Below the pieces are notes generated by a model. The model ran no database searches. It was not told where the DNA came from and was given only the letters and a program-made list of their open reading frames with translations. Both the position numbers and the translations under genes were made by a program. From assembly GCA_000165345.1 (NCBI GenBank), contig CM000432.1, positions 896,001 to 960,000 of the forward strand: 64,000 nucleotides of DNA, given 5' to 3'. Below, piece after piece: positions 11,805 through 62,571 of the stretch (its first letter is position 1; each line of letters opens with the position of its first letter).

Positions 11805-12222
11805 TTAATGTTCTTCAGCTTTGTGGATAGGATTAATGAGTGGAAACATTTGAGAAAGGTAAACGCAAAACCACATAATCCATAGGCAGAAAGTCATCAT
11901 TACTACCACAACAAGTGAAATCCTGAGAAGGCAAAAAAGTTATTAGTAGGTAATTTGCAGTTCTAGCCATCGTTTCAATGCAAAATTGATCTGTTTTGTA
12001 TTACTTTTTGTAAACAAAATCAGCAAATGACCAGAAGAAAATGCATCCTTTGACTAACAAAAGATACATATCCAATAATTAAACTTACTTAGCAGTATCA
12101 GATCTGGAAAGATTCTTACTTCCCTTAATACCAAAATATACTGTTGAAGAAACCGCAGCAATGAAACCCAGTACTCCAAAAATTATTGAACCAAAAATCG
12201 CATTATCATAAGGAGGAGCCAT
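11805..12222 (-). CDS. VMA9: V-type ATPase V0 subunit e (ATP6V0E/Vma9 homolog), 83 aa, two exons: 12089..12222 and 11805..11922, intron 11923..12088
   Basis: Not in the ORF track. Exon 1 encodes MAPPYDNAIFGSIIFGVLGFIAAVSSTVYFGIKGSKNLSRSDTA. The donor GTAAGT overlaps an in-frame TAA. A polypyrimidine acceptor (cttttttgccttctcag) lies 166 nt downstream. Exon 2 continues in frame with KISLVVVVMMTFCLWIMWFCVYLSQMFPLINPIHKAEEH*. The two-helix product aligns with subunit e (human [31 protein letters not shown], yeast MMFLMWAITFLCQLHPLVAP). A G-box GGGCGGGAAAG (12360-12370) sits about 140 bp upstream. Confidence 0.7.
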
Positions 12223-12827
12223 AATTTCTCAAATACTTAATAGTAACTCCAGAATCTCTTATTCTTTATTTTATAAAGCTATTTTCAAGCCTTTAATTTT
12301 ATTTTTTATATTTATTATTTTTTTGTATCTTTATATTAATTTTTTAAATTATTGGCTTTGGGCGGGAAAGTATTTCCATTTAATTACTATGTGACAAATA
12401 ATTACCCATATTATTAAGAGGGAAAGAAGGTAAGCTAAATGTTAATAGAGAAATTGGGAAAATAAAATAAAGTAATATTGGTTAGTGTTAAAAAATAAAA
12501 ATAATATCTATGAAAAAACAAATGTAATGTATAAGAACTAACGTTGTATAGTGGAATTTGATAAAGTTTGATATTTTTCCATTATATGTTGAGTAATGTC
12601 TTGAATAGTATTTTAGATGTAGAAGATTCAATTTCTAAGAAGAAGAAAATAAACTTTTCAATTTATTGTATAGCTAATTATATATTAATCTATTAGTTTA
12701 CAATATATATTCACATTTAATATTAGAAAATTTATTTTGGGATATTATATAATATATAGCGAAATTCAAAATATTTTGATAATTTTTAAAAAAAGACTAT
12801 TTCGAGGTTTATTGGTGTGTGTAAGGT

Positions 12828-13955
12828 ATGGCAACTATTAATAATGCAGTATTTTTGTCAGATGATGAAGAAGATGAATCCTTTCATGGATCTGATGCCT
12901 CTTCTATAATAGAAGGTGAGAGGTAAGTCTTTAATAAATTAGATGGATTTTTTTTTTAAATATATTTAATTTCTACCACTTTAATATTTATGAACATAAA
13001 AGTTCTGAAGAAGAGGTTTCTAGTTCAACAAATAGAAAATCGAAAAAATCATCTTTAAAAGATGTAATTAATGATCGAAAAGTAGAAAAGATATACAAAG
13101 AGTTATTGGAAGAATCTAAAAAGGAATTTCAAGAAAGAGTATCTACTGTAAGTAAAGACCATTTTATGTTGGAATTTCAAAAGAAGTGTTTTGATCCATT
13201 AAGAAAGAAAAATTCGAATTTACATGAATTAAGACATTATGTAGATCTTGGTGTAAGTTTACAATTCCTCAAAACTAATGGAGAAATTGTTTGGAAAGAA
13301 TTATCAGAGAATTCTCAGCATAACAAAATTAATATAAGTTATGAAGCAAAGAGATTATCACAATTCTTACTTACTTAATCTCCATTTGATAATCGATTTT
13401 CTATTCACTAATTTCTTAATCACCTTTTCTTATAAATAGATTTCCAAAGTATTTGAGAATCCAATAAACTTTGATATTTCAAAATTCAAAATTTCGAGCC
13501 GAAATCTGAGCAAAGAATCAGAGAAAGAAACACGTAGGATGATTGAGGAAGCTCTAGGAAGTTTAGAGGAAAAAGGAGTGCGATATATTGATAAGAAAGT
13601 TAAATATGCAGGTGAAACGTACACTATTAAAGAAAAAGTCGACCCGGAGACATTTTCAAGGAAAAAAGCACGAACATCTTCCACAGGAATGCAAGCTCTT
13701 GATGAAATTGTTGCTAATCTTAATAAGGAAATTAACATTAACTCAATACAAAAATCACACTCTGATTGGACTGAATTTAGACAGATGGCGGGCCTCGAAT
13801 CTCAGCTTGAGCGCCAAAGAAAACATGGCTATATTTCAAAGACGGCATTTCTGCAAAAAGCAGATTGGAAATTACATGAAAAAGAACTTGAGATTAAGAG
13901 AAGAAGCGGTGGTAATAACAATATTAGCAGTAGTAGCAATGCAAGCGGTAACTAA
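12828..13955 (+). CDS. SWC5: BCNT-C domain protein (CFDP1/Swc5 homolog), about 287 aa, three exons: 12828..12922, 13003..13252, 13440..13955
   Basis: Acidic N-terminus (MATINNAVFLSDDEEDESFHGSDASS) typical of Swc5/CFDP1. C-terminal KSHSDWTEFRQMAGLESQLERQRKHGYISKTAFLQKADWKLHEKELEIKRR matches the BCNT-C domain. Two GTAAGT...AG introns (12923..13002 and 13253..13439) join three ORF pieces in frame. The ORF track shows them as separate 90-aa and 138-aa ORFs. The second intron is less certain than the first. Confidence 0.65.
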
Positions 13956-14345
13956 AAGATAAAGGTGTTGATTTAAACTTCTCTTTCCCCTCTTTTCCAC
14001 TCCCACAGAACTGATCTCTTTTAAATTCAGTAATTAATCTGAAAAATATGAGAATTGTACTTATTAATGCTATAGAGTAGCAACAACTAATATATTATTC
14101 TAAACAAGTTATATTTTCTTAACTAGCTTTATAATTGGAAAAAAAAATGTGGATGTGCGCGCCTTTTATATTTGCATGCAAATTTTTTCATTTAATACTT
14201 ATTTTCATGTTAATTTGATAATGATTTCAAAATATTGATTTTAATTAGGCGGGAATACTTATAAATAAATTATATATAGATTATTATTGTTAAAATGGAA
14301 TAAACATATAATGATAAATTCGGATATATCTTAGAATGATGATAT

Positions 14346-16168: not shown

Positions 16169-18109
16169 ATGAGATTGAGAAACTGGTGTATCCTTTCAAT
16201 CTTCATACTTCTGATTAAATCGTTAGATAATATATGTTTTGCTTCTAATGGAGAATTTAATTCGTTAACTATAGCTTCATATACGCAGCAAAATCAACAA
16301 AGAATAGCAACATTAGCAACTTATAAAAAGAAGATCAATGATTCCAATAAAAGGATATTTAAGCTAAAAAAAATCATTTGTAGAATATTACAAGTACAAC
16401 AGGAAAATAATCAAACGGGATTTAATTCAAACTCTAAAGCTACAAGAATTTCAGATAGACATCAAGATGCCATTGTTACTACTAGTGGAAGTAATAATAA
16501 AAGTAGTACTTCCGATAATGATGAACTTGAAAAGAAACTTTCTGAAGTTGTTGTATCTTTATTAGACGAACAGGCTAAATTCGCAAACTTGATATTGAAA
16601 AGAATAATAATATTTTGGAATCCAAGTTTAAACTTTGGAGTTGATATCTCATCTAAAGGAGCATTAGAACGAGGATTTCTTGATATGCTTGGTTTAGGAG
16701 ACAAGCAAATTTGGAGTGGATCTAATTATGGTGGTAAACTTATAAGAGCTACAGACTCTGAGAATAGAATACAAGAGTCTCTATCAAAATTGATTAGTCT
16801 TACTGAATTATATAGATATCTAATGGTACATAACTATCTTCATATTATTGGTTCCATTTATAGACATACAAAAAATTTTGAAAGAACTGTCAGATCAAGA
16901 CTTAGGTTATTTAAAAAAATGAGAGATAGGCTGGTAAGCACAAGAGATTCTTTAGCTTTGATATTAAATACAGATTTACCAGATGACGTTAATTTACCAC
17001 ACCCTATTTCTCCTCCTTGTTATCTTAATATGGGAGAGAATTGTAATGAAGAAATGTATAATCAAATCTTGAATGAAATAGCTTTTTTCAAAACAGTTCA
17101 AGATGAGAATAGAGAGCTTTCAACTAGAATTCGTGATGGATCATGTGGAAACCATGAAGTTACAGGATGTACATTCTGTGAAATCAAGAAAGCAAGGATA
17201 TCTTTGATTGAATGGGCATTTAATGATATTCAATCAGATTTAACTAGACTAGAAAGGGATTTGAAGCTTTGCCAGGAAACAATTAAACGGAATAATGGAA
17301 ATGATTTATCCATTTCCAAATTTAATAGAGGCGGAGGAGGTTTTGAACCAAACTTGGATTATAACATTTCTGATTCTTCAGAAACTATGCTCGGATATGG
17401 ATCTAGCGAGCTAAGCAATGATCAAAATGAAACCAATTCATATGGTAATTTTTCAAGTGAATTTGGAAATAATGCAAGGCCAACAGGAAACATGAATAGA
17501 AGATCACGAACTTGCTCAAGCACGGAGATTAAAAGATATAAAAGAAGATCCTTTCATCATAAAACGTCAAAAAAGACTTCGAAGCGTAGATATCTTAAAT
17601 CAAGGAGGACAAAGACAATTAGGAAATCTAAAGATTGCGATGCTGATCCTTTTTTAGCGGATAACAATAATGATGGTGTATCAAATGTAAGTAGTTCCCA
17701 CAAAAATCAAATTCATTCCACAGATTCTAAAAATAGTAGCTCACCTTCAGGTTTTAAGAGTGATTATAATAACAGAAGAAGATCTATATCAGGAGGAGGC
17801 AAACAAACAACCGAAAATAATGATCTGGGTATATCTTCCCCCTTTCTTAGTACCTCTGAAACTAGTAGTCATTCTTCAGATTGCGAATATGAGTCAGAAA
17901 CAGACGCATCCTCACCTTTTAATGGTGAAACAAATTCTATTACGAATACACCCGAGATTCATAGCTCTGTAAGTCCGAAAAGTACCGTATCACCGGAAAC
18001 CAAAAGGGGCTACTCTTCAGCTCCAAATGATTCCATCCAATCGCTTAAAACTGAAGTTCCACAATCTCTCTCCAACACACAAAACAATAAAAGAAAAAAT
18101 AGGAGGTAA
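16169..18109 (+). CDS. hypothetical secreted protein (646 aa) with signal peptide, coiled-coil middle and basic Ser/Arg/Lys-rich C-terminal tail
   Basis: N-terminus MRLRNWCILSIFILLIKSLDNICFASNG is a signal peptide. Tail has RRSRTCSS, KRYKRRSFHHKTSKKTSKRRYLKSRRTK. True ATG at 16169. Confidence 0.6.
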   Translation: MRLRNWCILSIFILLIKSLDNICFASNGEFNSLTIASYTQQNQQRIATLATYKKKINDSNKRIFKLKKIICRILQVQQENNQTGFNSNSKATRISDRHQDAIVTTSGSNNKSSTSDNDELEKKLSEVVVSLLDEQAKFANLILKRIIIFWNPSLNFGVDISSKGALERGFLDMLGLGDKQIWSGSNYGGKLIRATDSENRIQESLSKLISLTELYRYLMVHNYLHIIGSIYRHTKNFERTVRSRLRLFKKMRDRLVSTRDSLALILNTDLPDDVNLPHPISPPCYLNMGENCNEEMYNQILNEIAFFKTVQDENRELSTRIRDGSCGNHEVTGCTFCEIKKARISLIEWAFNDIQSDLTRLERDLKLCQETIKRNNGNDLSISKFNRGGGGFEPNLDYNISDSSETMLGYGSSELSNDQNETNSYGNFSSEFGNNARPTGNMNRRSRTCSSTEIKRYKRRSFHHKTSKKTSKRRYLKSRRTKTIRKSKDCDADPFLADNNNDGVSNVSSSHKNQIHSTDSKNSSSPSGFKSDYNNRRRSISGGGKQTTENNDLGISSPFLSTSETSSHSSDCEYESETDASSPFNGETNSITNTPEIHSSVSPKSTVSPETKRGYSSAPNDSIQSLKTEVPQSLSNTQNNKRKNRR

Positions 18110-18121
18110 AGACCGACTGCA

Positions 18122-18148
18122 ACGGCGCCGGCGCCGGCCAAGCCCCGC
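18122..18148. promoter_or_regulatory. GC-rich element CGGCGCCGGCGCCGGCC...GCCCCGCC (doubled E2F-like core plus G-box-like) in a 3'-3' intergenic region
   Basis: A 27-bp stretch that is mostly G/C, 13 bp after the stop of the 16169 gene. No nearby 5' end of an annotated gene. Confidence 0.4.
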
Positions 18149-18361
18149 CAACTCTCTATGCATTTTGTTTAGCAGAATTTTATGAGTGAGAAATCCGAAA
18201 GAAAATTGTAATGTATGGAAAAGAAATAACTTTATAAACATCTTGTTATTTGATAGCCCACATTTATTGTAAGGAATTATGATTATTCATGCTATTGGAG
18301 CTAATTGTTAGACTTTGAGAGTTAATACACGATGGTTGTGCAGAGCTACTTTGCAGATGTG

Positions 18362-18390
18362 TATATATATATATATATATATATGTATAT
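18362..18390. repeat. (TA)n microsatellite
   Basis: gtatatatatatatatatatatatgtatat. Confidence 0.85.
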
Positions 18391-18951
18391 TTTACTTCTC
18401 ACTAGAGGATGTTATTTTTTGGTAAATATTGCGAAATATTGAAGATATTAAGATAATGCATAAGAAGAGATAAGAGAGGGATGCATTTTCTTTTTATTTT
18501 CTAATTTGAGAGAAAAAGTTACTTAAATTTATTTTAGAGCTATAGTGTAAGATGTTTTGTAGTATATACTTATGGCATCTTCATTTTATGTTTATGGTTA
18601 CACATGCTGGTATTAGTGGCGGATTAATTTGAAGTTTTCTTAGATTTTTTTTTCTTCCGAATTCAAATAATCACGAGCTCTAATTCTTTTGCTAAATTCC
18701 AGCTAAGTTAGAAAGATGTTTCAGAGGCGTATATAGGGAGAAAAAAGTACTGAATGTGGGGAGTTCATACTGGGGGTAACAAAAAGTTTGGAATGTTTTA
18801 TAATATGGGTCTTTCCCGAATTATATATATTTAGTAATTCACTATCTTTTTACTTAAATCTACAAGGTGGGTTCAGGCTTTGAGGGAGGTATGAATTTGG
18901 ATACTGCATAGAAGAAGTAATATTTTTTGTTTTAATTTTCTTCCCGATCTT

Positions 18952-19378
18952 TCACTCTTGCTTATCAGCTTCACGCTTTTTCTTTTTTTCCTCTCTATTT
19001 TCAGAAGGGAGCCAGTTAACTTTGTTTCTGCAATACATTGGCCAGGAAGGAACACAAACCTGAAATTAAGAATTAAAAATGCAAAATTATTAATTCCCGC
19101 GACTTACTAGAAGAGTGATAGCCAGACCTAATAAAGTTGTCAGTACCGTATAATAGAACTTTTGGTGGTAAAATCCAATAATAAACGACATAATCCCTGT
19201 TAATATAACCAGTCGTTCTTGAATCTTATATGCTAGATCTTGTCCGGAAAAATCCTAATTTTTCAGTAAATGTAAGTGTTTTTAAGTTAAAGTGATCAAT
19301 AATTATTTCTTTTTCTTTTAAACTTACGTGAATATTTTCCTCTAAACAATTTTTGATGTGTAGTATTGTTCCTAACAT
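18952..19378 (-). CDS. SPCS1: signal peptidase complex subunit 1 (SPCS1/Spc12 homolog), 101 aa, three exons: 19328..19378, 19108..19254, 18952..19059
   Basis: Spliced product MLGTILHIKNCLEENIH|DFSGQDLAYKIQERLVILTGIMSFIIGFYHQKFYYTVLTTLLGLAITLL|VCVPSWPMYCRNKVNWLPSENREEKKKKREADKQE*. It aligns along its length with human SPCS1 ([28 protein letters not shown]...[22 protein letters not shown]). Both introns are GTAAGT...AG (19255..19327, 73 bp; 19060..19107, 48 bp) and phase-consistent. Only the last exon appears in the ORF track (18873..19055). Confidence 0.75.
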
Positions 19379-20441
19379 TGTATTTCTTTTAATCTTTTAC
19401 TTTTCTTCAGTTTGTAATATTTGCAGATTTTCAAGAAATAGGTGATATATCTTGAATATATATAAATATATATTTTGTAGTTAGAATAAGTTAAGTTTGA
19501 GTGTACTGTGTGTGGGAAACTGTTTATTTAATTTCTATATTTGAAATTCTTAAGAAGAAAAAAAACTTTAATTTGCTCCTGTAAAAGTTGGTATTATTAT
19601 TTGTTATTTTAGACTCAAAAGAATTTTTCCTATTCGGTACCTTGAGCGTGTAAATTGTATTCTTAAATCTTGTGTTTATTGAAATGAGTGAAGTAATTAA
19701 AAAAAATACTCTCTAATTTTTAATTAATGAGGTATTTTTAATTCTCGCACAGTTTGATTTTTTTTCATTTAGGTTTTTTATTTTTTTTTTACATATTAGG
19801 GTACCTAGTTTAATCTGCCCCCTTAAAACTTGTATACCGGCGAAATTATAATTTAAAAAAAAATGCCGGTATTAAAAATTATAATTGGAAGAGAAAGCCC
19901 GCCCAAATGCCAATTAGGGACAAATAATAAAATTAATTAGAGACGGAAAGTAATAAATGAAATAAAATAATTAGTAAACGGTATTGACATTAATTGAGAT
20001 GCCGGTTGAATGAAGGAAAATTGAGAAAAATTGAAAAAACTTTATTTTCTCTTTTTTTTTTCTATATATATATAAGAAGAAAAACAACAAAGAAAACGCA
20101 GAATAAAGTAGAGCCCTATAAGTGGGAGGTTCTGTGAGAAGTTTGTTGGGTGGAAAAGATCAAGAAAATAAAGAATAAGGTACTACTATTTGAGAGGTTA
20201 GAATAAAGGTTATTGGATAATAATATCTGATTCTTTGGGTTTCAAAGTAATAACTGATTAACTGGATAATACTAGTAAGATTCAGTAGAGCTTATAAAAG
20301 AATCAAAGTTTGATAAGTATAATAATATAAGAGATCATATTATAGGATACCTAAAGATTAATTATTTGATATCCCATTTAAGATTGAATACAATTATTTA
20401 TAGAATAGGAAGATTTGTGTACATATTAGGAAAAAGTAATC

Positions 20442-24129: not shown

Positions 24130-24395
24130 ATTTTTGTATATTTCACGAGCTCTACCCAGTTTAATGGTAATTTTAAGTAATTTTTCAGGATAATAATTCC
24201 ATACCTTTTATGATCTTATTGTTTTCCTACCTTTTTTCTTCTAGAAAATAAAATATCTCTTGGGTTTTCATCCAAGATATAAACTAGTAGCTATTGAAAA
24301 AAGAGAAACCTTATCCAAGTAATTGATTATAAACTGATTATTTTCTTTTTGATCTAATCACCAATTACTTTTAATATTTATATTACTACTATTAA

Positions 24396-24423
24396 TTGCA
24401 TGTTGGCGCCATTGGCGGGAAAA
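24396..24423. promoter_or_regulatory. composite promoter element TTGCATG-TTGGCGCCATT-GGCGGGAAAA in a divergent promoter
   Basis: GCATG, the E2F-like palindrome TGGCGCCA (24404-24411) and G-box GGCGGGAAAA (24414-24423) lie back to back between divergent genes 23761..24129 (-) and 24935..25936 (+). Confidence 0.6.
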
Positions 24424-24934
24424 TTAGTATTTATTATTTATACATAAGGTAAAGAAATTGAAGTGGGAAAATATTAAGTCAAAGTAAAATTATTTTTAAT
24501 AATTCATCAACTCCAATCAACAAGTAATAAGATTTTTTTAAAAAAGAGACAATAATTTCAACATTTCCAATCAGGAAGTTTGTGAGTGTTAACGCGTATA
24601 ACTAGCCATTTATAGTCGTTATTAACTTTTAAAAAAGATATTAAGTAATAAAGCAAAAGTGAAAACTAGTTTGTTTAGAAAAGAAAGATAAACTTGCACT
24701 AATAAGCTAATGTGAGTGTGAGGGAGTAATTTAGCTTGCTTAGAATCGATTATAAACTCCAAAAATCTTATATTTGGATGAGTATTTAAAAAGCAGGAAA
24801 GTAAATAATAATAATTGAAAAAAAAAGTACATACGTGTAAAAGGATGTATGAACTTGCATGGGTATATAAAAGAACTAAAATAATAATTTAATTATTGGA
24901 ATACAGAAATTGAAATTAATCTAAAGTGGAAATA

Positions 24935-29508: not shown

Positions 29509-32196
29509 TTATATATTTGTATTGTTGACTATATTAACATTTGATGTTAAATCTTTAGAATTTCCTGTGTAATTACTCCATTCTGTATTTAAATTTGTAT
29601 TATTTTGTATTAAAGAAGGAAATATTGGCATCATAAATGGATTTATGGATGGAATAAATGGTGAATAGGCTTGATATGGTAATTGTGTAGAAGAATATAC
29701 TCTTGCATGATTTTCCATGCTTAATTGATTATATCCTTGATCATTTTGCATATTAGAACTATTATTCATTCCAATACCATAAAATGGAGGATTACAACTA
29801 CCAAATAAAGGAGGTATACAGAAATTCAAAGGTAGAATATTTCCAAAAATAGGAGCATTATTTGAAGCAATACTTCTTGAATTTAAATTTGTATTAAACA
29901 TTTGTATCAAATTGGATCCATGAAATATGTTTGGAATACCATAAATGAAATTAGAAGATGCTAAATCTTCGGTACCATTTTCAATATGACTACTATCATT
30001 GATATTTTTGACCTCAAAACTTAAAGTATTAATAGTGTTATCATTTTCGTTATTTGTTTGTATTCCTTTTTTTTTATTTTCTTCCTGAGTTGATAAGTAA
30101 AAACTATAAGCTTGTTTATACTGTGATTCTCTTTCCATATTTGTGGAATTTAATGAAACCCTGAAAATTTGAGAAAGCTTCTGACCCTGTTTAAAATAAG
30201 TTACTTTCCATCCTCTTGGCTTCTTCCACCACTCAATCTTACTTTTTTGTAAATCTAACTTTTCGTGATCCAACCTTTGAATCTTACTAGCATTTTCAGA
30301 ATCATTATTAGATTTTCTCTTTTTTATCATCTTTTTTTCTAATACTTGATTTTGATTTTCATCAGTATAAAAGTATTTTCTATTATAATTAAGATTTTCA
30401 TTATTATTAAAATCTCCATTATCTTTGTTTTTATCATAATAAACTTTGTTATTTCTTAACATATCGCATAAAATCTCCTTACTTTGTCCCCCCTTAATAC
30501 CATATTTGATATCTAACAAAGTATAAATACCGTTTGACATTTGCATGCAATATTGCCCGCCTTTAGAAGTTTCAATTTGATCTTGATTAAACTCGAGATT
30601 ATCTTTAAGGTTTGAGTTAGATTCCAGTAATTTTGAAGATGAAATACCAGAACACTCACAATTTTCAAGAGTCTGAACTTTACCTTGTAATCTTGTGGCA
30701 ATCCTCCTTTTTTCGTTATAATTGGGGTAAACAGATCTATATCCATTGTCTTGAATATCAGTATGTAGCAAATTCATACAAGACTTTTTGTGGTTAATCA
30801 TTGTATTAAGGCAGACTTTTGAATTAGAATTTAAAACATTCTTAGAATTAAATTGAAAGAATCCATTTCCATAGTTTGTACAGGCAATAGGAGAATGTCC
30901 GGCAAGACCTCCTTCTGATAAGTAATTTAAATCATCATTTATTCTGGATGCATTTTCTATAATTTTATTCCATTGATTCAAATTGAATTCATTCTTTTGA
31001 GTTCCAATTTCTTCTACTCCAGCCATATTGATAATTTGAATGATATCATTTACTGCATAAAGGTGCTGTAATTCTCTTCTCGTTGTTTTATTTAATACTT
31101 CCTTGACAGTTTTCACGCCAAGAATGGAATCAAATATACCCCTAAGCAAAAAATTATAGTCATTGCTCCCAGCCTGATTAACCCCAAGTATCTGGGTAGC
31201 TTGACTAAATAACAAATCATATTCATCAATTGTGAACTTTTTGTTGCTTGTATATTCTAATACCAAGTTTCTTAGTTGTTTTCTACAGCTTGAATGTAAT
31301 TTTTCCCACTCAAAATGCTCACTATTATATTCTTCAAGTTGATTAAAGAAGTCAGAGTCAATGGATGAGAATAATAACATTATCTTTTGAATTAAATCGA
31401 CTGTTTTATGCTCGTGAGAGCTTTGAATTGAACAAAACTTCAAGGAAGGATCACTAAATTTATAGTATTCCGTCTCTTGAACTACCTTTGAGTTTTTATT
31501 TAAATTCTTATTAGAACAATCAGCAGTTTTTCTTTTAGAATAAGTAGATTTACTACTTTCTATAGATCCAATTTCCAAAAGAGTAGAATAAAATCCCTCA
31601 GGTAAACAGTTGATTGTTGCTCCATGTATTTTTTCTAGAAATTGAATTGCTCTTTTTGCAGCTCCTTCTTTACCAAATTTCTTACAACTCCATTGCTTAC
31701 AAGACCATTCATTATTATTTAACCATTCTACAATTACTTTACGTTTTTCCTTGTCTTCTTTAATGACTGAATTAAACTTGTTCATTTTTAAATTGATTGA
31801 ATTTTTATCATTTTCATGAGCTTGTATTTCATTTAAATGTGAATTTGACTCAACATTGGACTTTTTATGCTCTTCAAATTCTCTGATAGGAAAAGCTGGG
31901 TTACAACAATCAATCACTTGATCGCTACTACTAGCTGTTGTTGTTAAATAGTAATTTTTAGAATTTACTTGGTCCATATTATGCGGAGAAAATCCTTGAA
32001 TCTGGTCAAAATTTTGTATTATATTTTCACTATTATTCTTTAACTTATGATAAACCAGTTTACTATGAAATTCATCTTCAATTTCTGATTTAACTCCAGC
32101 TTGTTTGGAATTTTCTACGGTATCACAATATTCTGAAACTATTATAAGTTGTTCTTTTGATACTAATTCATCGTCAATTTTTGACTCACCAATCAT
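29509..32196 (-). CDS. ApiAP2-family transcription factor with two AP2-like domains (895 aa)
   Basis: KIEWWKKPRGWKVTYFKQGQKLSQIFRVS...YKQAYSFY and VIVEWLNNNEWSCKQWSCKKFGKEGAAKRAIQFL follow the apicomplexan AP2 pattern (V-x-W...W-x-A-x-W...K-x-FS...A-x-x-A). Rest is N/S-rich low complexity. A 1.4-kb motif-dense upstream region lies at 32197..33577. Confidence 0.6.
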   Translation of the reverse strand: MIGESKIDDELVSKEQLIIVSEYCDTVENSKQAGVKSEIEDEFHSKLVYHKLKNNSENIIQNFDQIQGFSPHNMDQVNSKNYYLTTTASSSDQVIDCCNPAFPIREFEEHKKSNVESNSHLNEIQAHENDKNSINLKMNKFNSVIKEDKEKRKVIVEWLNNNEWSCKQWSCKKFGKEGAAKRAIQFLEKIHGATINCLPEGFYSTLLEIGSIESSKSTYSKRKTADCSNKNLNKNSKVVQETEYYKFSDPSLKFCSIQSSHEHKTVDLIQKIMLLFSSIDSDFFNQLEEYNSEHFEWEKLHSSCRKQLRNLVLEYTSNKKFTIDEYDLLFSQATQILGVNQAGSNDYNFLLRGIFDSILGVKTVKEVLNKTTRRELQHLYAVNDIIQIINMAGVEEIGTQKNEFNLNQWNKIIENASRINDDLNYLSEGGLAGHSPIACTNYGNGFFQFNSKNVLNSNSKVCLNTMINHKKSCMNLLHTDIQDNGYRSVYPNYNEKRRIATRLQGKVQTLENCECSGISSSKLLESNSNLKDNLEFNQDQIETSKGGQYCMQMSNGIYTLLDIKYGIKGGQSKEILCDMLRNNKVYYDKNKDNGDFNNNENLNYNRKYFYTDENQNQVLEKKMIKKRKSNNDSENASKIQRLDHEKLDLQKSKIEWWKKPRGWKVTYFKQGQKLSQIFRVSLNSTNMERESQYKQAYSFYLSTQEENKKKGIQTNNENDNTINTLSFEVKNINDSSHIENGTEDLASSNFIYGIPNIFHGSNLIQMFNTNLNSRSIASNNAPIFGNILPLNFCIPPLFGSCNPPFYGIGMNNSSNMQNDQGYNQLSMENHARVYSSTQLPYQAYSPFIPSINPFMMPIFPSLIQNNTNLNTEWSNYTGNSKDLTSNVNIVNNTNI

Positions 32197-32879
32197 TTTC
32201 TTCTAATTTTATTTATTAATAATTTGAAGGACCAATTTCGGTATGATTTTTTATTCACCAAAACTTTAAATAGTTAATTATTACTATGTTTATAATTAAT
32301 TATGGTAATAATCTTAGAAAACTCAAAAATCTCGTCAATTTTAATTTCATAATAATTTAGATTAAATATATATTGATATATATTTATTTAAAAACTTAAT
32401 ATTTGAACCCAAAAATCTTGGATTTGTTGATAAAAAAAAATTATTTAGTTAACTCAAATTGTTCTGCTAATATTTGATAAAGAAAATCTGTTTAAAAGAA
32501 AAATGATTTATTATATTATACACTTTAATTCCTTTGCTCTCTTTTTATTTAAACTCAAGCTCTCTTATTCTTAGCCAACTTACGATAAACCTTCCATAGA
32601 AAAAAAAATGTAAATTTCTGTTCCAATATATAATATCTTGATTAATTTAATTTCTCTATTATATATATTTATATGATTTTTTTTTTCCTCAAATTATCCA
32701 CAATTATCTACAGTCTCCTTTACCTTTACCACTGGAAATTGAATCCCTAGTTAGAAGAATTTACTAACTTTTTTTTATTTATTACTTTCTCCTCTTTACT
32801 TCCTCCTTCACCAAATTAAAATTTAAACTTTAATGTTTTTCTTCACCCTTTAAAAGTCTTTTTTCCTATTCTAACTATT

Positions 32880-33070
32880 GCCACCGGTATACTGACCACA
32901 TGCAAAACTTTGTTTTTTTCATGCACTGAGCGCCAACTCTTCCCGCCCAATTGCATGCAAAAATTTGTAGTAAGTGGCAAATTTATGCATGCAAGGTGAA
33001 GAATAATCTACTGCTTGGCGCCAACGTAAATCTCAAAAAAAAAATTAGCATCTAAAATATGAAGGGAGGC
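32880..33070. promoter_or_regulatory. dense cis-motif cluster upstream of the AP2 gene: ACCGGTA, GCATGCA x3, E2F-like GAGCGCCAAC and TTGGCGCCAA, G-box CCCGCCC
   Basis: ccaCCGGTAtactg...catgcactGAGCGCCAActcttCCCGCCCaatTGCATGCAaaa...ttaTGCATGCAagg...gcTTGGCGCCAAcg. A further GCATGCA pair at 33440-33465. Confidence 0.55.
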
Positions 33071-33577
33071 GGTGGGTCTTGAGAAATAGAAAAAAGGTCA
33101 AGGAGCGATAATACTTGGTTATTTTTACTCAAGAAAAAATAAGTGGGGAATATAAATAAAAACTTATGAAGATATTAATTATACAACTAGGGTAGTAAGA
33201 CTATTCAAATACTAACAAAGTTTTAATCTCTTCTCCGCTCAATATAGAGAATATCTACGTAAAATCAATTCACCAATTTGTAGTTGAGTCTGGGCTTATT
33301 AATTACTATATACCATTTTATTTAATATAATTCGTTTACTAAAAAAAAATAGTTTTTTCCAAAAAATTTTTTTTCAAATATATTCATAGGTGCTTTGTTT
33401 ACATTACGTGTCAAAAAATATTTGCATTCGGCTTCATTGCATGCAAAATTGCATGTAAAGCACAATTGTGTTATTCTCCATTTTAGGTGAAATAAAAATT
33501 AAAAATATGATTTCAGGAAACTCTAGGAATTCTTGTTAAATAAGCTATTTAAATTATATTAATTAATTAATTAATGC

Positions 33578-36500
33578 TTAGTAATAATCAAAGTGTAGAA
33601 AAGCATCATGCCTTTTTGCTGATAAAATAGCAACTTCTCTTCTAAGAAATAAGTGGAAAAGTTTGTTATGATAATATGTGTGAAGAATTGAGTTGATTGA
33701 GGAAGAAATACTCTTGGTAATCAAGTTTGTGAGTAGAATAATTATTAATATTAAAGAAATCAATGCCAAAAGCGATATAACAAATGTAAATAAAGTAAAG
33801 AATAGCTGGGATCGAAAAATTAATTGTATCTGCCCTTTTACAATAAAGAAGTGAAGAGCAAAGAAAACCAAGAAGAAGAAATAAGCTGATTTAAAGTATT
33901 TATTGTAAAGGGTGAGCTGAAGAAAGCCATTGTTTCTTGAAATAACATAATTCCAAATTGTTATAAAGAATGTAAGCTCTCTTAATATCAAAGTCTCATT
34001 TATATTTGTAAGCTTACGCTTTTTTCTACGTTTTAAGAGATTATTAATTATATATAAAAAAATACGAAACCTTTGTATAATTAATACCCATAAAAATCCA
34101 AGAGGATTGAGAAATGACCATACAAGAAGAGCAAAATGTGAAGCCAATATTACTTCAAAGAATACTGTAATTATTGTTGATTCTGAAAATCTAATCCATT
34201 TTTCCGGGTATCGAAGAAAGTTAAAGTATAGATTCTTCTTATCAATGTAAGAAAGCGTGTAAAAGGAGAGAGTAATCAACATACAAATTAACCATTGAAT
34301 TATATACCAAATTCTACAATCATTTGGTCTTATGAACTCGGCTTGACAAATTGCAAGAATGTGGCGTTCAATTCTAGAATTCTGCAAATGAAAACTCTGA
34401 ATTTGGCTTGGAAAATTACTCAAAATTGGAGAATATTCCCCTGGGCTTACATTATTCTGGTAACTTATAGGGCTATTATTTGAGTTGGTTATCTGTGAGA
34501 CTGAATTGTTACTATTGTTCTTATTGCTTATTCCCATACTTGCACATAAATTACTGTTCGATGCAATCCCTCCATTATTTACATTAAAAAGAAAGTGCTC
34601 ATCTGAGAGAGTCATACAAGAATTCATTGCCTCAAATGGATTTTGAGAAAACATTGTATTACTATTTGGAGAGTTACTGCTTGAAACAAGATCTATGTCG
34701 TAAATCATATTAAGATTATTACTTTGAGCAATGTTCTGGGATTGAAGCAATCCAGAATGTTTAGTACACATCCAAATTGAGTAATATTCATAAAAAACAT
34801 CCTTCAAAGTCCAATACTTATGAGATGGAAGTTTTTTGTACCAGAACTTTTCATTTATTAATTCAATAATATTTTGGCTAGGTTCAATTTCGTTAAATTG
34901 GTTCATCGGGCTATTGGATTGTAAAGGAGAGTTGTTCATATGAGAATGAATTAACCTGGAAGCTGGAGTTAATAGAGAGTCTGAATATTTATCCAAAATA
35001 TGTACGATCTTTTCATTATACATTGGTGAAACATTTGATGAATCCTGATTGGCATTTAATGATGACGAAAAGCTTATCATATTCTCAGAATTTGTTTCAT
35101 TAAGTTCCAACCCTTCGCCTTGAAATTCATTATCTGGACTTAATAAGCTTAAAAGATCAACACTTGATGGAACAAAAAGATGGAACAATCGATCTCTCTC
35201 GCGAATTGAAATGGTTGCAAGAGATAAAGAAGCGTTTGAAATTGCTGATAGTAAAGAAAGGTAAACTGAAACAATCATTAAATCAATACTCTTGCATAAA
35301 ATAATCCAATACATTGATATGAATAAAATAACTAGACGAATTAATCCAAAAAAAATAAAAGTATTGGTTTTTCTCTGAATCTCTGTGTCTTTGCAATTAA
35401 AGAGCCTTCTGATTCTAAAGAAAATATCTTCAAAAGCATCATAACCAACAAGAGTACATTTCAGTCCAAAAATTAATGCTCTTAAATATGATTTTGATTT
35501 TATTGGAAGGTTATTAGCAAGTAAGAATGTTGGAGAAATCTGTTTTCTTGTACTCAGAAATGATGAAAGCCCTATCATAAAAAGAACATATTTTGACAAG
35601 ATCCAGTTTAATATGAACTTAAAAGGAGCCAATATAAACAATTCTTTTCTCTTCATTATTGAGTTTCGATTTTGGACATTGCTTTGTTCAGCATCACTTA
35701 TATCATTATGTCTGAAGAAATTGCGATTATTACTATTCACTCTTTCGCTTTTACAGCTATTACTGGTATTAATAGTACTATGGACATTTGAATTATCATT
35801 GGCATGAAAGTTCTGGCACTTCTTTCTTTTTAATGAATTTTTGTTTTCTTCTAATAAAGAATTAAGAGAAGATGACGATTTATCACCCTTGGAAGAATTA
35901 TATAAGGGGTTAGTGGTTTTATATTGTTGATAACCAATTAAAGAACCATCAACTGAATCATCAAAAGATTTAATAGAATTATCAGTGTTAGCTCTATCCA
36001 TATTGTTTCTTATATATCTTTTCTTATAAGATGAAGGAGTATCACTTACAATTAATACTGTTAATAAAATCATAATAGCACTTGCAAGAGTTATTATAAT
36101 AATAGCAACAATCTTATTATCAATTGACTGGCTTGATTTAAAAGAAGGATGGCTTATTATAGCTTCTGAAATAACGCTCCTTTTCACGACAAAGTTGTAG
36201 AATGGCTTGGTATCTTCGCTGATTTGATGTTTTCTAAGTACAAACTTTAAAATAGATGGAGAAAAACCTAAATTTTGAAGAACAAATAAAGATAGAGGTT
36301 GAGGTAATTTTGCAGATCTTGGCATTCTTGATCTTAAAAGGAAATCCATAGTTTTACTAAGATGATTTTCCATAACAATTCCATTAGAAAGAAGATCCAT
36401 ACTATCCCAGGTTGAAAACAAAAGCAAATCTACAAATCTTGGAGTACTAACATCACATGTATAATTCAACAAGGACTTTGTGGAAAATTCAAGAGGAGAG

Positions 36501-38788
36501 ATATTATTGATTCGTGTTTCATACGTATGACTTGGAAAAGGAAGGGGAAATGATTCATCGTAAATGCTCCTCTTGAATTGATCGTTGGGATACTTATTAT
36601 TAAGATCAGAAATACGATGTTTCACTGTCGTTTGGGATTTCGGAGTATGTTTTCGGGATTCCATTTTAAGCTTCGAATTAAACAGCTTCTTATTAGAATA
36701 AGACAACTTTGGTAAAAAAACTGAAATCACATATTGTAAAAGTTTAACAGCAATAGCCTCTTCAGACTGCTTACAGTAGTCGAGCTCAACTAAAATATCA
36801 TTAAAAGCTTTCGGTCTATTCTTTAAAAGAGTGAAAAGAGCAAGATCTACACCTTTTTGATAGATAGAATTGGAGTCAGTTGGCTGATGTTGTTTCAGAG
36901 CCAGTTTGAGAGCACCGTGATATGCTTTAGTACAGAGATGTTTGTATTTGGAAAGGCTATTGGTTGTAGTTTGCTCAATACATTGGTTGAACAAATTTGT
37001 GAAAAATATCGTCAATAAATTATTTCCACGAAGAATGCTAATACTAAGGGAATTGGATTCCTCTAAAGAATTTGTCTCACCAATAACTAATAGAGGATAA
37101 AGGAATGGATTCAGTATTTTGTTTCTGGAAAGTTCTTCCAGATTTTCAGTTTTTAATTTGACATCTCTTTTAAAGACCATAGAAATAATCTTTGAAGTTA
37201 ATAGTAAGACAGACTGTTCAAGCTGGTCTTTTTCATTATTGCCTTGGCTAACCAAATTACTATTAATTAAAGTGAAAATATTTGCTTTAATCATTTCACT
37301 GAATCTCTTCATTATTTCACTCTTCTTGATCAAAATCATCATTTGAGTAACACTTTGGAAATTGGAATTAGGTTTATACATTGGAACACCAAACATAACC
37401 TTTGTGAGAGTTTCAATACTTCGATCAGAGTACAGTGCTTGAATCAGAAAAGATCTATTTGAATGTGGATCAACCATAAATAGAAGAACGAATATATTCA
37501 TCAAAACAATATTTGGAGTATTTTTTGACATTAAAGAAGTTCCTTTGAACATTAAATCCATGAACCTTCTTCTAAAAGAAAATCCATATGGTTGTTCTTC
37601 GCTATATAGGCGAGAAATTAAAAGTTCAATTGGCATAATTTGATTATTCCCAGTTTTATGGGGATTACATATATGCCCTTCTGGTAATTTTCTTGCTTGG
37701 ATATAGAATTCTAATAATCTGAAGATTAATTTGGGATAATGCAGTTTACATGCCCACCAGAGAATAGTTAGACCATTTTGATCAGTGGAAGAGCATATTA
37801 CTACATTTTCAAGTGAAATTTCAATCTCGAGTAATTCTAAGAGTATTTGTTCTCTGATGTAGTACTTAATTCCCAATAAAAGTCTTCTAGCAGCAGAATG
37901 ATGGTATTCTGGAATATTCTTTCTAATATCAAACTCTTCAAGCGAATATCTTTTTGAACTAATCAATATTGGAAGAATATCAATTCTATTTTCAAGAACT
38001 GCCAAAGTGACAGGATCAAAGCCAGCATAATTTCTAATCCAAGGAAAAGCTCCAAAAGATAATAGAGCGCTAACAGCTTCTTTGAAATTCACCATTAATG
38101 CATGTATGAGTGGAGTGTTTCCTAGAATATCTCTAAAATTGGGATTTGCTCCTTTTTCAAGCAAGTAATTTACCAATCCTATATCAAGTTGGCTGATTGC
38201 ATAAAACAAGGGAGTTCTTCCATCGGAATCAGTACAATCTAGGTGAGCTTTTCCTTTTTCTATTAATAATCGAACAACTTCTTTGTGTTGATTCTTGCAA
38301 GCTAGAAGAAGTGGGGTGAATCCATATTCACTATAAAGGTCAACAGAAGCTCCTAAAGAAAGAAGGTGGGATACAAAAAAATAGCCAATTTCTCCAGAAA
38401 TTTTGCATGCTGCAGTCAAGGCGGTTTCTGAGTGTTTACTTTTTCCAAATTTATAACCAATTCTTGAAAGAAAGCTGGAAATATTGATAAATCTTCCAAT
38501 ATCTCGTGCAATTATTGATTCTAAGAGTTGTACTGGGGCAGATAAACGATCACCGGAATATCTTGTGAGTATAGATTTGGAATTTTCCATACTTTCCTCA
38601 AATTTTGACCAACTACTCATTGAATAGTATTCCGATTCCGTGATTTTACTACTTTCAGAAATTTTATATCCATATTTTCTTTTCGTTTTTGGACTAACTA
38701 TTTTTCCAGTAAATATTATTAAAATGATAATTAAAGTAAATCCAATGATTCTTGAGAATTTGGAATAAATTCGAATATGATGATTCAT
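33578..38788 (-). CDS. giant ankyrin-repeat polytopic membrane protein A (1736 aa)
   Basis: N-terminal signal/anchor, ankyrin repeats (GFTPLLLACKNQHKEVVRLLIEKGKAHLDCTDSDGRTPLFYAISQLDIGLVNYLLEKGANPNFRDILGNTPLIHAL), 12 or more hydrophobic helices in the C-terminal 900 aa. Paralogous to the adjacent downstream gene. Confidence 0.75.
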   Translation of the reverse strand: MNHHIRIYSKFSRIIGFTLIIILIIFTGKIVSPKTKRKYGYKISESSKITESEYYSMSSWSKFEESMENSKSILTRYSGDRLSAPVQLLESIIARDIGRFINISSFLSRIGYKFGKSKHSETALTAACKISGEIGYFFVSHLLSLGASVDLYSEYGFTPLLLACKNQHKEVVRLLIEKGKAHLDCTDSDGRTPLFYAISQLDIGLVNYLLEKGANPNFRDILGNTPLIHALMVNFKEAVSALLSFGAFPWIRNYAGFDPVTLAVLENRIDILPILISSKRYSLEEFDIRKNIPEYHHSAARRLLLGIKYYIREQILLELLEIEISLENVVICSSTDQNGLTILWWACKLHYPKLIFRLLEFYIQARKLPEGHICNPHKTGNNQIMPIELLISRLYSEEQPYGFSFRRRFMDLMFKGTSLMSKNTPNIVLMNIFVLLFMVDPHSNRSFLIQALYSDRSIETLTKVMFGVPMYKPNSNFQSVTQMMILIKKSEIMKRFSEMIKANIFTLINSNLVSQGNNEKDQLEQSVLLLTSKIISMVFKRDVKLKTENLEELSRNKILNPFLYPLLVIGETNSLEESNSLSISILRGNNLLTIFFTNLFNQCIEQTTTNSLSKYKHLCTKAYHGALKLALKQHQPTDSNSIYQKGVDLALFTLLKNRPKAFNDILVELDYCKQSEEAIAVKLLQYVISVFLPKLSYSNKKLFNSKLKMESRKHTPKSQTTVKHRISDLNNKYPNDQFKRSIYDESFPLPFPSHTYETRINNISPLEFSTKSLLNYTCDVSTPRFVDLLLFSTWDSMDLLSNGIVMENHLSKTMDFLLRSRMPRSAKLPQPLSLFVLQNLGFSPSILKFVLRKHQISEDTKPFYNFVVKRSVISEAIISHPSFKSSQSIDNKIVAIIIITLASAIMILLTVLIVSDTPSSYKKRYIRNNMDRANTDNSIKSFDDSVDGSLIGYQQYKTTNPLYNSSKGDKSSSSLNSLLEENKNSLKRKKCQNFHANDNSNVHSTINTSNSCKSERVNSNNRNFFRHNDISDAEQSNVQNRNSIMKRKELFILAPFKFILNWILSKYVLFMIGLSSFLSTRKQISPTFLLANNLPIKSKSYLRALIFGLKCTLVGYDAFEDIFFRIRRLFNCKDTEIQRKTNTFIFFGLIRLVILFISMYWIILCKSIDLMIVSVYLSLLSAISNASLSLATISIRERDRLFHLFVPSSVDLLSLLSPDNEFQGEGLELNETNSENMISFSSSLNANQDSSNVSPMYNEKIVHILDKYSDSLLTPASRLIHSHMNNSPLQSNSPMNQFNEIEPSQNIIELINEKFWYKKLPSHKYWTLKDVFYEYYSIWMCTKHSGLLQSQNIAQSNNLNMIYDIDLVSSSNSPNSNTMFSQNPFEAMNSCMTLSDEHFLFNVNNGGIASNSNLCASMGISNKNNSNNSVSQITNSNNSPISYQNNVSPGEYSPILSNFPSQIQSFHLQNSRIERHILAICQAEFIRPNDCRIWYIIQWLICMLITLSFYTLSYIDKKNLYFNFLRYPEKWIRFSESTIITVFFEVILASHFALLVWSFLNPLGFLWVLIIQRFRIFLYIINNLLKRRKKRKLTNINETLILRELTFFITIWNYVISRNNGFLQLTLYNKYFKSAYFFFLVFFALHFFIVKGQIQLIFRSQLFFTLFTFVISLLALISLILIIILLTNLITKSISSSINSILHTYYHNKLFHLFLRREVAILSAKRHDAFLHFDYY

Positions 38789-62456: not shown

Positions 62457-62571
62457 CACAATAAAATAATTTTTAAATATTTTAATATCTTAATAATATA
62501 TTTACGCGAATGCATGCATGCATGCATATATGTATTACTAATAAAACAGAGATATAGATAATTAATTACAA

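Follow-up and report, generated by a model that had tools for sequence, protein, structure and literature searches.

The intergenic spacer upstream of the Cryptosporidium parvum ApiAP2 gene cgd4_3820 contains a 146-bp putative promoter module that is built from known TGCATGCA and E2F motifs and conserved genus-wide. Regulation of the gene by other factors is a reasonable inference from this arrangement, while self-regulation is not supported by anything in the spacer. Our preferred model, to which we assign a probability of about 0.62, is a conserved promoter module followed by a leader of ~680 nt, with inputs from TGCAT-binding ApiAP2 proteins and E2F/DP. The module contains four TGCATG-type sites, three E2F-like GC boxes, a conserved TTTGCCACTT and a near-invariant 33-nt element. 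The window, meaning the whole stretch of 64,000 nucleotides that was analysed, belongs to C. parvum chromosome 4, and the features discussed below are listed in Table 1.

Table 1. Features of the cgd4_3820 locus, in window coordinates.
Feature	Position	Strand	Basis
cgd4_3820 coding ORF, published ApiAP2, 895 aa	29509-32196	-	ORF list and 100% identity
Probable 51-nt in-frame intron, GTGAGT...ATAATAG	32139-32189	-	splice sites read off the sequence
AT-rich, purine-rich leader, putative ~680-nt 5' UTR; GA-rich tract at 32785-32812	32197-32878	-	composition
Putative conserved cis-regulatory module, about -683 to -828 from ATG	32879-33024		eight-species alignment
Near-invariant 33-nt element AAAGTTTTGCATGTGGTCAGTATACCGGTGGCA	32879-32911	-	alignment
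Site 3, TGCATG-type (sense GTGCATGA), 21 nt upstream of anchor ATG	32920-32925		motif scan
Adjacent E2F-like GC boxes: GCGCCAA (32930-32936) and TTCCCGCC (32940-32947)	32930-32947		motif scan
Site 2, TGCATGCA, 55 nt upstream of anchor ATG	32952-32959		motif scan
Conserved TTTGCCACTT	32972-32981	-	7 species; TTTACCACTT in C. felis
Site 1, TGCATGCA, 89 nt upstream of anchor ATG of ATGTGGTCA	32986-32993		motif scan
Palindromic E2F site TTGGCGCCAA, distal edge of module	33015-33024		motif scan
G-box match GTGGGG (G[T/C]GGGG), one copy	33143-33148	+	motif scan
Distal motif cluster: TGCATTC, TGCATGCA (33438-33445), TGCATG (33450-33455)	33423-33455		motif scan
Upstream neighbour, ankyrin-repeat and transmembrane protein	33578-38788	-	ORF list

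The gene is 100% identical to cgd4_3820 (XP_625957.1, 895 aa), which bears out its preliminary description as an ApiAP2 gene. The published protein is a putative orthologue of domain 2 of P. falciparum PFF0200c and is named among the ApiAP2 proteins with an array motif (PMC4117751). The spacer (32197-33577) lies between its ATG and the stop codon of the ankyrin-repeat gene, both genes being co-directional on the minus strand, and synteny with this neighbour is kept in six species. At 1,381 bp it ranks third of the 19 spacers in the window (median 599 bp), so that calling it unusually long was fair. The orthologous spacer measures 1,392 bp in C. meleagridis, 1,268 bp in C. ubiquitum, 1,131 bp in C. 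bovis and 1,109 bp in C. ryanae, whereas it is 573 bp in C. muris. A mis-called start or N-terminal extension behind the long spacer was ruled out: an in-frame TAG lies 9 nt upstream of the ATG, 12 orthologues have homologous N-termini and the start codon is shared by both annotations. The newer annotation (cpbgf_4003820, 878 aa) has the N-terminus MIVSEY, and the probable intron would directly follow ATGATTG, leaving the start codon the same. The spacer would have three parts. The distal ~550 bp (roughly 33025-33577) would hold the 3' end of the ankyrin gene, whose 3' UTR must be placed here, and a clade-specific TGCATGCA cluster; the middle part would be the promoter module, and the proximal part a leader transcribed as a long 5' UTR.

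Conservation is concentrated in the module. The four TGCATG(CA) sites are separated by about 31-34, 34-36 and 18-21 bp with the GC boxes interleaved, and both order and spacing are kept in seven species and partly in C. muris. The TGCATG of site 3 is invariant in all eight aligned species; at site 2, five species have TGCATGCA, whereas C. bovis and C. ryanae have TGTATGCA, and site 1 appears in other species as xATGCA at -85 to -89 of the anchor. The number of perfect octamers in the upstream region as a whole varies, from three in C. parvum to two in C. ubiquitum, one in C. meleagridis and none in C. bovis or C. ryanae. A blastn comparison of C. parvum with C. bovis aligned 116 nt of the module at 76% identity (E=8e-17), while the next-best match among six other syntenic spacers had E=1.4e-6 over 55 nt; the longest exact match was 24 nt in this spacer and at most 12 nt in the others. 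The cgd4_3820 spacer is therefore by far the most strongly conserved between these species among the seven syntenic spacers. Three-way identity has its maximum (0.66-0.80) within the module. The distance from module to ATG is 680 nt in C. parvum and only ~180 nt in C. muris, consistent with a single promoter whose leader varies in length.

The preliminary description had mentioned two E2F-like sites, and we located TTGGCGCCAA, GCGCCAA and TTCCCGCC. The spacer has four matches to E2F-type heptamers and octamers against 0.04 expected, a number reached in none of 2,000 dinucleotide shuffles of the spacer. TTGGCGCCAA has the symmetric [C/G]GCGC[G/C] core with T-/A-rich flanks and is an exact match to the C. 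parvum E2F/DP consensus ([A/T][C/G]GCGC[G/C][A/T]; TGGCGCCA), and TTCCCGCC corresponds to the canonical E2F variant of plants and animals to which PMC3734150 refers. The homologous position of TTGGCGCCAA is occupied by GCGCCAA, GGCGCC or GGCGCT in six species. More generally, the GC boxes hold the same module positions across species and differ in the exact variant; compared with known E2F/DP sites, the three putative boxes are distinguished by a shifting variant (GGCGCC, GGCGGG, CCCGCC) at a constant position. The other two sites described earlier fared unequally. ACCGGT is present at 32883-32888 and is weakly above chance (83/2,000 shuffles). The single G-box does exist, but it is individually unconvincing, since 237 of the 2,000 shuffles also matched and it is therefore not above chance. 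It was not found at the homologous position in C. meleagridis, so this match is neither enriched nor conserved as an ApiAP2 G-box should be.

The 33-nt element, of pattern ATGTGGTCA-N(7)-CGGTGGCA, contains TGCATG site 4 (32899-32904) together with the ACCGGT site. C. parvum, C. ubiquitum, C. canis and C. felis share exactly the same sequence, and C. meleagridis, C. bovis and C. ryanae each carry a single substitution; C. muris keeps ATGTGGTCA..ATACC. No other copy exists in the window at up to three mismatches, and exact scans of metagenome and prokaryotic genome collections gave zero matches; AAAGTTTTGCATGTGGTCAGTATACCGGTGGCA is neither a contaminant nor a widespread repeat. A possible, though doubtful, reading is that AAAGTTTTGCATGTGGTCAGTATACCGGTGGCA is an undescribed regulatory element specific to this SIP2-like AP2 gene and that it, rather than TGCATGCA, is the reason for the deep conservation. 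The element may combine a core promoter with an initiator, be bound by an unknown factor or encode a tiny upstream ORF (uORF). Such a factor may recognise GTGGTCA and ACCGGTGGCA, plus an inverted GCCAC upstream.

The preliminary description called the gene two-domain and suggested that it could belong to an auto- or cross-regulatory AP2 circuit. A single AP2 domain is detectable by sequence (aa 142-195), and at least one such DNA-binding domain defines an ApiAP2 protein. The Pfam AP2 match to cgd4_3820 (aa 156-192, E=2.5e-4) is under the curated cut-off, and all eight orthologue segments match the same family (best E=5.9e-7). A profile of aa 142-195 matches the AP2 structure of P. falciparum SIP2 (6SY0) with E=1.7e-15, and both AP2 repeats of that structure are matched. 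A second conserved block (aa 652-705) is AP2-like by predicted fold only; at the sequence level, no second AP2 domain was detected by Pfam, by a profile search of the PDB or by hhalign with the first domain. A tandem construct of SIP2 (PFF0200c) binds the same GGTGCACC-type motif as cgd4_3820 (PMC4117751). Unlike SIP2, which has an adjacent tandem pair, cgd4_3820 has one sequence-detectable AP2 domain, with the predicted second fold ~460 residues further on. The cgd4_3820 promoter also differs from SIP2 and its SPE2 target element in having neither an SPE2-like nor a GTGCAC site.

These properties bear on an autoregulatory loop, in which cgd4_3820 would bind the TGCATGCA or TGCATG sites of its own promoter and which we consider improbable. 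The protein-binding-microarray motif of its domain is GGTGCACC (PMC4117751), so the product probably does not act on its own promoter. GTGCAC, the core of this motif, is missing upstream of the gene in all nine species surveyed (C. parvum and eight others) and occurs once in the 64-kb window, within a coding region. It is true that GGTGCACC and TGCATGCA share a central TGCA, that a 2025 review labels the cgd4_3820 motif 'AP2_1-like' (PMC12246861), that the module of C. parvum and C. ubiquitum has one GTGCATG (32919-32926) and that a second AP2-like fold is predicted at aa 652-705. However, this lone GTGCA core is unconserved, reading AATGCATG or CATGCATG in five species, and cgd4_3820 is not among the four TGCAT-binding domains of PMC4117751. 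The same review calls its expression 'not stage-specific' (PMC12246861). An unrelated motif together with constitutive expression, which the preliminary description named as refuting its idea, is thus largely, though not cleanly, what is found as regards self-regulation. Plasmodium ap2-g is an example of a self-activating ApiAP2 promoter with its own binding motifs upstream. Like ap2-g, cgd4_3820 has a long upstream region with several ApiAP2-type motifs; unlike in ap2-g, the factor's own motif was looked for in this promoter and not found. Of the suggested circuit, then, the autoregulatory half is not supported, and control by other factors remains reasonable in view of the conserved block.

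The motif counts raise the possibility that the sites are generic C. parvum intergenic background with no particular role at cgd4_3820. At least five GCATGCA copies had been counted before; the six matches are three palindromes scored on both strands, namely TGCATGCA octamers at 32952-32959, 32986-32993 and 33438-33445, at -763, -797 and -1249 relative to the ATG. Hexamer half-sites add CATGCA at 32899 and 32920 and TGCATG at 33450. These are exact palindromic sites in upstream non-coding DNA, as in the AP2_1 family, and three TGCATGCA compare with 0.008 expected, which none of the 2,000 shuffles reached. The window as a whole has 39 GCATGCA matches against 3.1 expected, and 15 of its 17 TGCATGCA start positions (16 non-overlapping copies) fall outside ORFs. 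The density of TGCATGCA in the spacer (2.17 per kb) is typical of the C. parvum genome, neighbouring spacers having 2.16, 1.98 and 2.49 per kb, and three or more copies at the rate of the window's other spacers have a Poisson P of 0.07, which is not significant. The region is therefore motif-dense compared with random sequence, but not compared with the genome. Indeed, TGCATGCA (AP2_1) and E2F are the main over-represented upstream motifs of C. parvum (PMC3734150), standard elements and no special property of cgd4_3820. We nevertheless give little credence to a generic background, because the site order, spacing and flanks are kept across species with just 34-50% protein identity.

The locus shares with the AP2_1 family the same palindromic octamer, non-coding and strongly over-represented (PMC3734150; PMC4117751), and its co-occurrence with E2F motifs, which is also known from several co-expression clusters (PMC3734150). 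It differs from the family in a four-site array whose order and spacing are kept across the genus and which lies 680-830 bp from the ATG; in other genes of the window the nearest TGCATGCA is mostly 190-440 bp from the ATG, with two at ~640 and 810 bp. The third perfect copy, at -1249, is beyond the 1-kb upstream limit of published scans. It belongs to the distal motif cluster, which sits 120-155 nt past the stop of the ankyrin gene, is kept only in the clade of C. parvum, C. meleagridis and C. ubiquitum and is missing from C. bovis, C. ryanae, C. felis and C. muris.

Between module and gene, the leader of C. parvum has two ATG against 7.7 expected (P about 0.007), and ATG is similarly depleted in C. 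meleagridis (3 vs 8.9), C. ubiquitum (2 vs 7.5) and C. canis (3 vs 10.1). C. bovis, C. ryanae, C. felis and C. muris show little or no such depletion. CAT is not depleted in the leader, nor is ATG in the distal spacer. This ATG depletion suggests a long 5' UTR, and the module is probably followed by a long untranslated leader, the start site and 5' UTR being deduced from composition. At the near-invariant element, all eight species show an abrupt change in both GC skew and purine content. GC skew was demoted from proof of transcription to supporting evidence: it is an unreliable marker of the sense strand here, as the neighbouring minus-strand ankyrin genes are opposite in sign. A Logan contig bearing cgd4_3820 ends 30 nt upstream of the ATG and says nothing on the 5' end of the transcript.

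The near-invariant element could encode a short conserved uORF controlling translation of the AP2 mRNA (ATG TGG TCA GTA TAC CGG TGG CAA TAG, encoding MWSVYRW(Q/H)), although we judge this to be rather improbable. The uORF is intact across seven species, the change from TAC to TAT seen in C. bovis and C. ryanae leaves the amino acid the same, C. felis has a stop at the same codon (TAG to TGA) and C. muris retains MWS.Y. On the other hand, the 10 nt upstream of its ATG are equally conserved, which points to constraint at the nucleotide level; the stop is gone in C. bovis and C. ryanae, and three of the five residues following MWS are changed in C. muris (V to K, R to H, W to H). Moreover, the uORF ATG belongs to a TGCATG site, and a transcript beginning at GGTCA would leave this ATG upstream of its start.

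The same compositional boundary bears on whether the spacer is the internal UTR of a dicistronic transcript of the ankyrin gene and cgd4_3820, with the E2F sites as an internal start. The two genes are co-directional, and internal UTRs of reported C. parvum polycistrons mostly have E2F motifs (bioRxiv 10.1101/2025.01.17.633476). The spacer is long (1.38 kb), however, composition switches and ATG depletion sets in mid-spacer rather than at the ankyrin stop, and nothing pointing to this particular pair of genes was found, making a dicistron very improbable. Least probable of all is that the conserved block holds a gene for a small structured non-coding RNA, or some other unannotated gene: the conservation is unusually deep for non-coding DNA and inverted repeats TTGCCAC / GTGGCAA lie ~90 nt apart, but Rfam gave no match at gathering score on the whole window and chance-level matches only at E up to 10 on the region, conservation falls in motif-sized blocks with variable spacers, and no ATG-initiated ORF in the spacer exceeds 25 aa or is conserved. 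A structured RNA in the eight-species block was dropped for lack of covariation, since RNAalifold scored covariation as a penalty (+1.51): nearly every pair was invariant, C. felis broke one, and 1 of 24 showed compensatory change; neither a curated family nor supporting covariation was thus found. The supplement of the C. parvum lncRNA catalogue has no entry naming cgd4_3810, cgd4_3820 or cgd4_3830.

In the promoter model that we prefer, control of the module by TGCAT-binding ApiAP2 proteins and E2F/DP is plausible. Some ApiAP2 domains do bind TGCATGCA or TGCAT, in line with the preliminary description, and four of them (cgd2_3490, cgd1_3520, cgd5_4250 and cgd8_3230) are reported to bind TGCAT, with at least one TGCAT-binding ApiAP2 at maximal expression at each surveyed time point (PMC4117751). 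These four would be the candidates for occupying the module together with E2F/DP heterodimers. Transcription would be driven jointly and start within the near-invariant element or shortly after it. A TGCAT binder expressed at every stage, combined with E2F/DP expressed in asexual stages, would give a broad rather than stage-restricted expression of cgd4_3820. Open chromatin of sporozoites is dominated by E2F motifs, and AP2 motifs are not reported in it by ATAC-seq (bioRxiv 10.1101/2025.01.17.633476); thus, the role of TGCATGCA may be limited to other stages, or may not be that of an activator.

The cgd4_3820 gene, the DNA preference of its product and the motifs have all been published before, and current understanding is left unchanged. 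Cryptosporidium promoters are almost wholly uncharacterised by experiment. The module combines the parasite's two dominant motif classes, TGCATGCA and E2F, in a fixed arrangement, and it lies upstream of the gene for a regulator whose DNA specificity has already been measured. The locus is therefore a convenient test case for promoter dissection, for the combination of ApiAP2 and E2F/DP inputs and for the question of whether long 5' UTRs are common to regulatory genes of this compact genome.

The cgd4_3820 ORF has orthologues genus-wide, from 87% identity in C. meleagridis to ~30% in C. muris. The older gene model gives 895 aa, whereas the newer annotation (cpbgf_4003820) gives 878 aa with the N-terminus MIVSEY, probably because a 51-nt in-frame intron lies directly after ATGATTG. 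The ATG at 32194-32196, read from the sequence, is common to both models and precedes this intron; therefore, the boundary of the upstream region at 32197 holds. Since cgd4_3820 and its right-hand neighbour, an ankyrin gene, are both on the minus strand, 32197-33577 is a head-to-tail spacer of 1,381 bp. This length ranks third of the 19 spacers in the window (median 599 bp), in agreement with the preliminary description of an unusually long upstream region, and is conserved in the intestinal species (1,109-1,392 bp); the C. muris spacer has 573 bp. In C. felis (L005, 1-3258), the annotated upstream neighbour of the AP2 orthologue runs in the opposite direction, encodes a 3,582-aa product with no ankyrin Pfam hit on record, and leaves a spacer of just 742 bp, which may reflect a rearrangement or differing annotation. 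Three independent assemblies are broken inside the upstream region, at 636 (chipmunk genotype I, L002), 740 (C. canis, L004) and 30 nt (Logan ERR14760746, L011) before the ATG. The AT-rich, low-complexity sequence between the conserved module described below and the ATG (the leader, 32197-32878) may be hard to assemble.

Features of the cgd4_3820 locus and its upstream spacer
Feature	Position	Strand	Remarks
cgd4_3820 ORF	29509-32196	minus	895 aa, 100% identity to C. parvum Iowa II XP_625957.1
Probable in-frame intron (GTGAGT...ATAATAG)	32139-32189	minus	51 nt; read from sequence
Ankyrin-repeat and transmembrane protein gene	33578-38788	minus	ORF
TGCATGCA octamers	32952, 32986, 33438	palindromic	exact matches
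Hexamer half-sites (three)	32899, 32920, 33450		sequence match
E2F-like site TTGGCGCCAA	33015-33024		sequence match
E2F-like site GCGCCAA	32930		sequence match
E2F-like site TTCCCGCC	32940		sequence match
ACCGGT	32883		single sequence match
G-box GTGGGG	33143		single sequence match

Residues 142-195 of cgd4_3820 match Pfam AP2 with E=2.5e-4, under Pfam's curated cut-off. AP2 is matched by all eight orthologue segments, and a profile of these residues aligns with both AP2 repeats of PfSIP2 (structure 6SY0; E=1.7e-15), indicating at the sequence level a bona fide AP2 domain. Its protein-binding-microarray motif is GGTGCACC, and the gene was proposed as the orthologue of PFF0200c domain 2 (PMC4117751). 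According to a 2025 review, the gene is 'not stage-specific' and its motif is 'AP2_1-like' (PMC12246861). The upstream region has no GTGCAC in C. parvum or in eight other species; the one copy in the 64-kb window is within a coding region. Therefore, self-regulation through the measured motif, as in the autoregulatory circuit suggested earlier, is unsupported.

The motifs of the spacer are those classically over-represented upstream of C. parvum genes, TGCATGCA (AP2_1), E2F and the G-box (PMC3734150), together with ACCGGT. All four types had been recognized in the preliminary description, but its 'at least five GCATGCA copies' is an over-count: the six matches are three palindromic TGCATGCA octamers, each scored on both strands, and three hexamer half-sites stand beside them. 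In 2,000 dinucleotide shuffles of the region, the observed numbers of TGCATGCA (three; expected 0.008) and E2F-type words (four; expected 0.04) were never reached, while the single G-box (expected 0.125) and ACCGGT (expected 0.043) were reached in 237 and 83 shuffles, respectively. The region is thus motif-dense against shuffled sequence, but not against its neighbours: TGCATGCA density is 2.17 per kb here vs 2.16, 1.98 and 2.49 per kb in neighbouring spacers (Poisson P=0.07 for the count against other spacers). TGCATGCA is enriched in non-coding DNA across this window of ~25-35% G+C, with 15 of 17 start positions (16 non-overlapping copies) outside ORFs. One of the only two octamers inside ORFs is in the cgd4_3820 coding sequence (30542-30549). 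A further octamer, outside ORFs (14173-14180), faces both 3' ends in a 402-bp spacer between convergent ORFs, an unusual position for a promoter motif that may point to an unannotated transcript or a problem in a gene model. A tandem (TGCA)4 run, TGCATGCATGCATGCA (62511-62526), is ~360 bp upstream of the ORF 60900-62150(-), and GGCGCCGGCGCCGG (18124-18137) directly follows the stop of the ORF 16169-18109. Two gaps, 10665-13538 (2.9 kb) and 18110-20441 (2.3 kb), have no ORF of at least 120 aa (largest 60-102 aa) and could harbour non-coding RNAs or genes with introns.

We fetched the orthologous loci from other Cryptosporidium species and aligned their upstream regions. A sharply conserved block spans window positions 32879-33024 (-683 to -828 relative to the ATG), forming a genus-wide conserved footprint upstream of cgd4_3820. 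From its distal edge towards the ATG, this module comprises an E2F site, TGCATGCA (site 1), TTTGCCACTT, TGCATGCA (site 2), two GC boxes, TGCATG site 3, an A-rich spacer and the 33-nt element AAAGTTTTGCATGTGGTCAGTATACCGGTGGCA, which contains TGCATG site 4 and ACCGGT. Four species, C. parvum, C. ubiquitum, C. canis and C. felis, share the same sequence of this element; C. meleagridis, C. bovis and C. ryanae each show one substitution. Its remnant in C. muris, ATGTGGTCAAAATACC, adjoins TTGCATGCAA and GGCGCC. Counted from the ATG within site 4 (the anchor), the four TGCATG-type sites are fixed at -85 to -89, -52 to -57, -18 to -21 and 0 in seven species. GC box positions are also maintained, with the form alternating between GGCGCC, GGCGGG and CCCGCC. 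For calibration, we compared C. parvum with C. bovis over seven syntenic spacers. Only the cgd4_3820 spacer gives a strong match (116 nt, 76% identity, E=8e-17; longest exact match 24 nt). The second-best block (55 nt, 78%, E=1.4e-6) is in a divergent promoter, and the other spacers have exact matches of at most 12 nt. This second-best block corresponds to a 39-nt exact C. parvum/C. ubiquitum match, AATTTTCCCGCCAATGGCGCCAACATGCAATTAATAGTA (24387-24425), with two E2F boxes and CATGCA. Perfect octamers in the upstream region number three in C. parvum, one in C. meleagridis, two in C. ubiquitum and none in C. bovis and C. ryanae; the TGCATGCA richness thus peaks in C. parvum, on a scaffold of TGCATG cores that is itself conserved. 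A distal cluster (33423-33455), 120-155 nt past the ankyrin stop codon, is conserved only in the C. parvum/C. meleagridis/C. ubiquitum clade.

The distance from module to ATG differs between species: C. meleagridis, 690 nt; C. parvum, ~680 nt; C. ubiquitum, 660 nt; C. canis, 635 nt; C. ryanae, 545 nt; C. bovis, 515 nt; C. felis, 320 nt; and C. muris, 180 nt. Sense-strand ATG is depleted in the leaders of C. parvum (2 observed, 7.7 expected; P about 0.007), C. meleagridis (3 and 8.9), C. ubiquitum (2 and 7.5) and C. canis (3 and 10.1), and at most weakly so in the four most distant species. Neither CAT, its reverse complement, in the leader nor ATG in the distal half of the spacer is depleted. 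Within 100 nt past the anchor, purine content rises and GC skew, which is no universal marker of the sense strand in this window, goes from zero or negative values to between +0.4 and +0.66 in all eight species. The ATG depletion and this switch suggest a long 5' UTR beginning at or near the near-invariant element.

Alternatively, the element might be conserved for an eight-codon upstream ORF, kept intact in seven species, that starts at the ATG of site 4. Against this reading, the bases before this ATG are equally conserved, C. bovis and C. ryanae lack the stop, and the peptide is mostly different in C. muris. A dicistronic transcript of the ankyrin gene and cgd4_3820 fits poorly, being at odds with the mid-spacer compositional switch. 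A structured RNA at the module found no support (no Rfam match at gathering score; RNAalifold gave only invariant, palindrome-derived pairs and a penalising covariation term), and no conserved small ORF was found in the spacer.

In the promoter reading, the module of fixed architecture would be occupied by TGCAT-binding ApiAP2s and E2F/DP, which would drive transcription of a long-leader mRNA from a start near the element. TGCAT binders are cgd2_3490, cgd1_3520, cgd5_4250 and cgd8_3230, at least one of which is at its peak at every sampled time point (PMC4117751), and E2F/DP peaks in asexual stages (PMC12246861; bioRxiv 10.1101/2025.01.17.633476). Taken together, these expression patterns agree with the listing of cgd4_3820 as not stage-specific. 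The cross-regulation by AP2 factors proposed earlier is plausible for these known factors, and the conserved footprint strengthens it. The cgd4_3820 upstream region adds a new and well-conserved example to an already known type of promoter.
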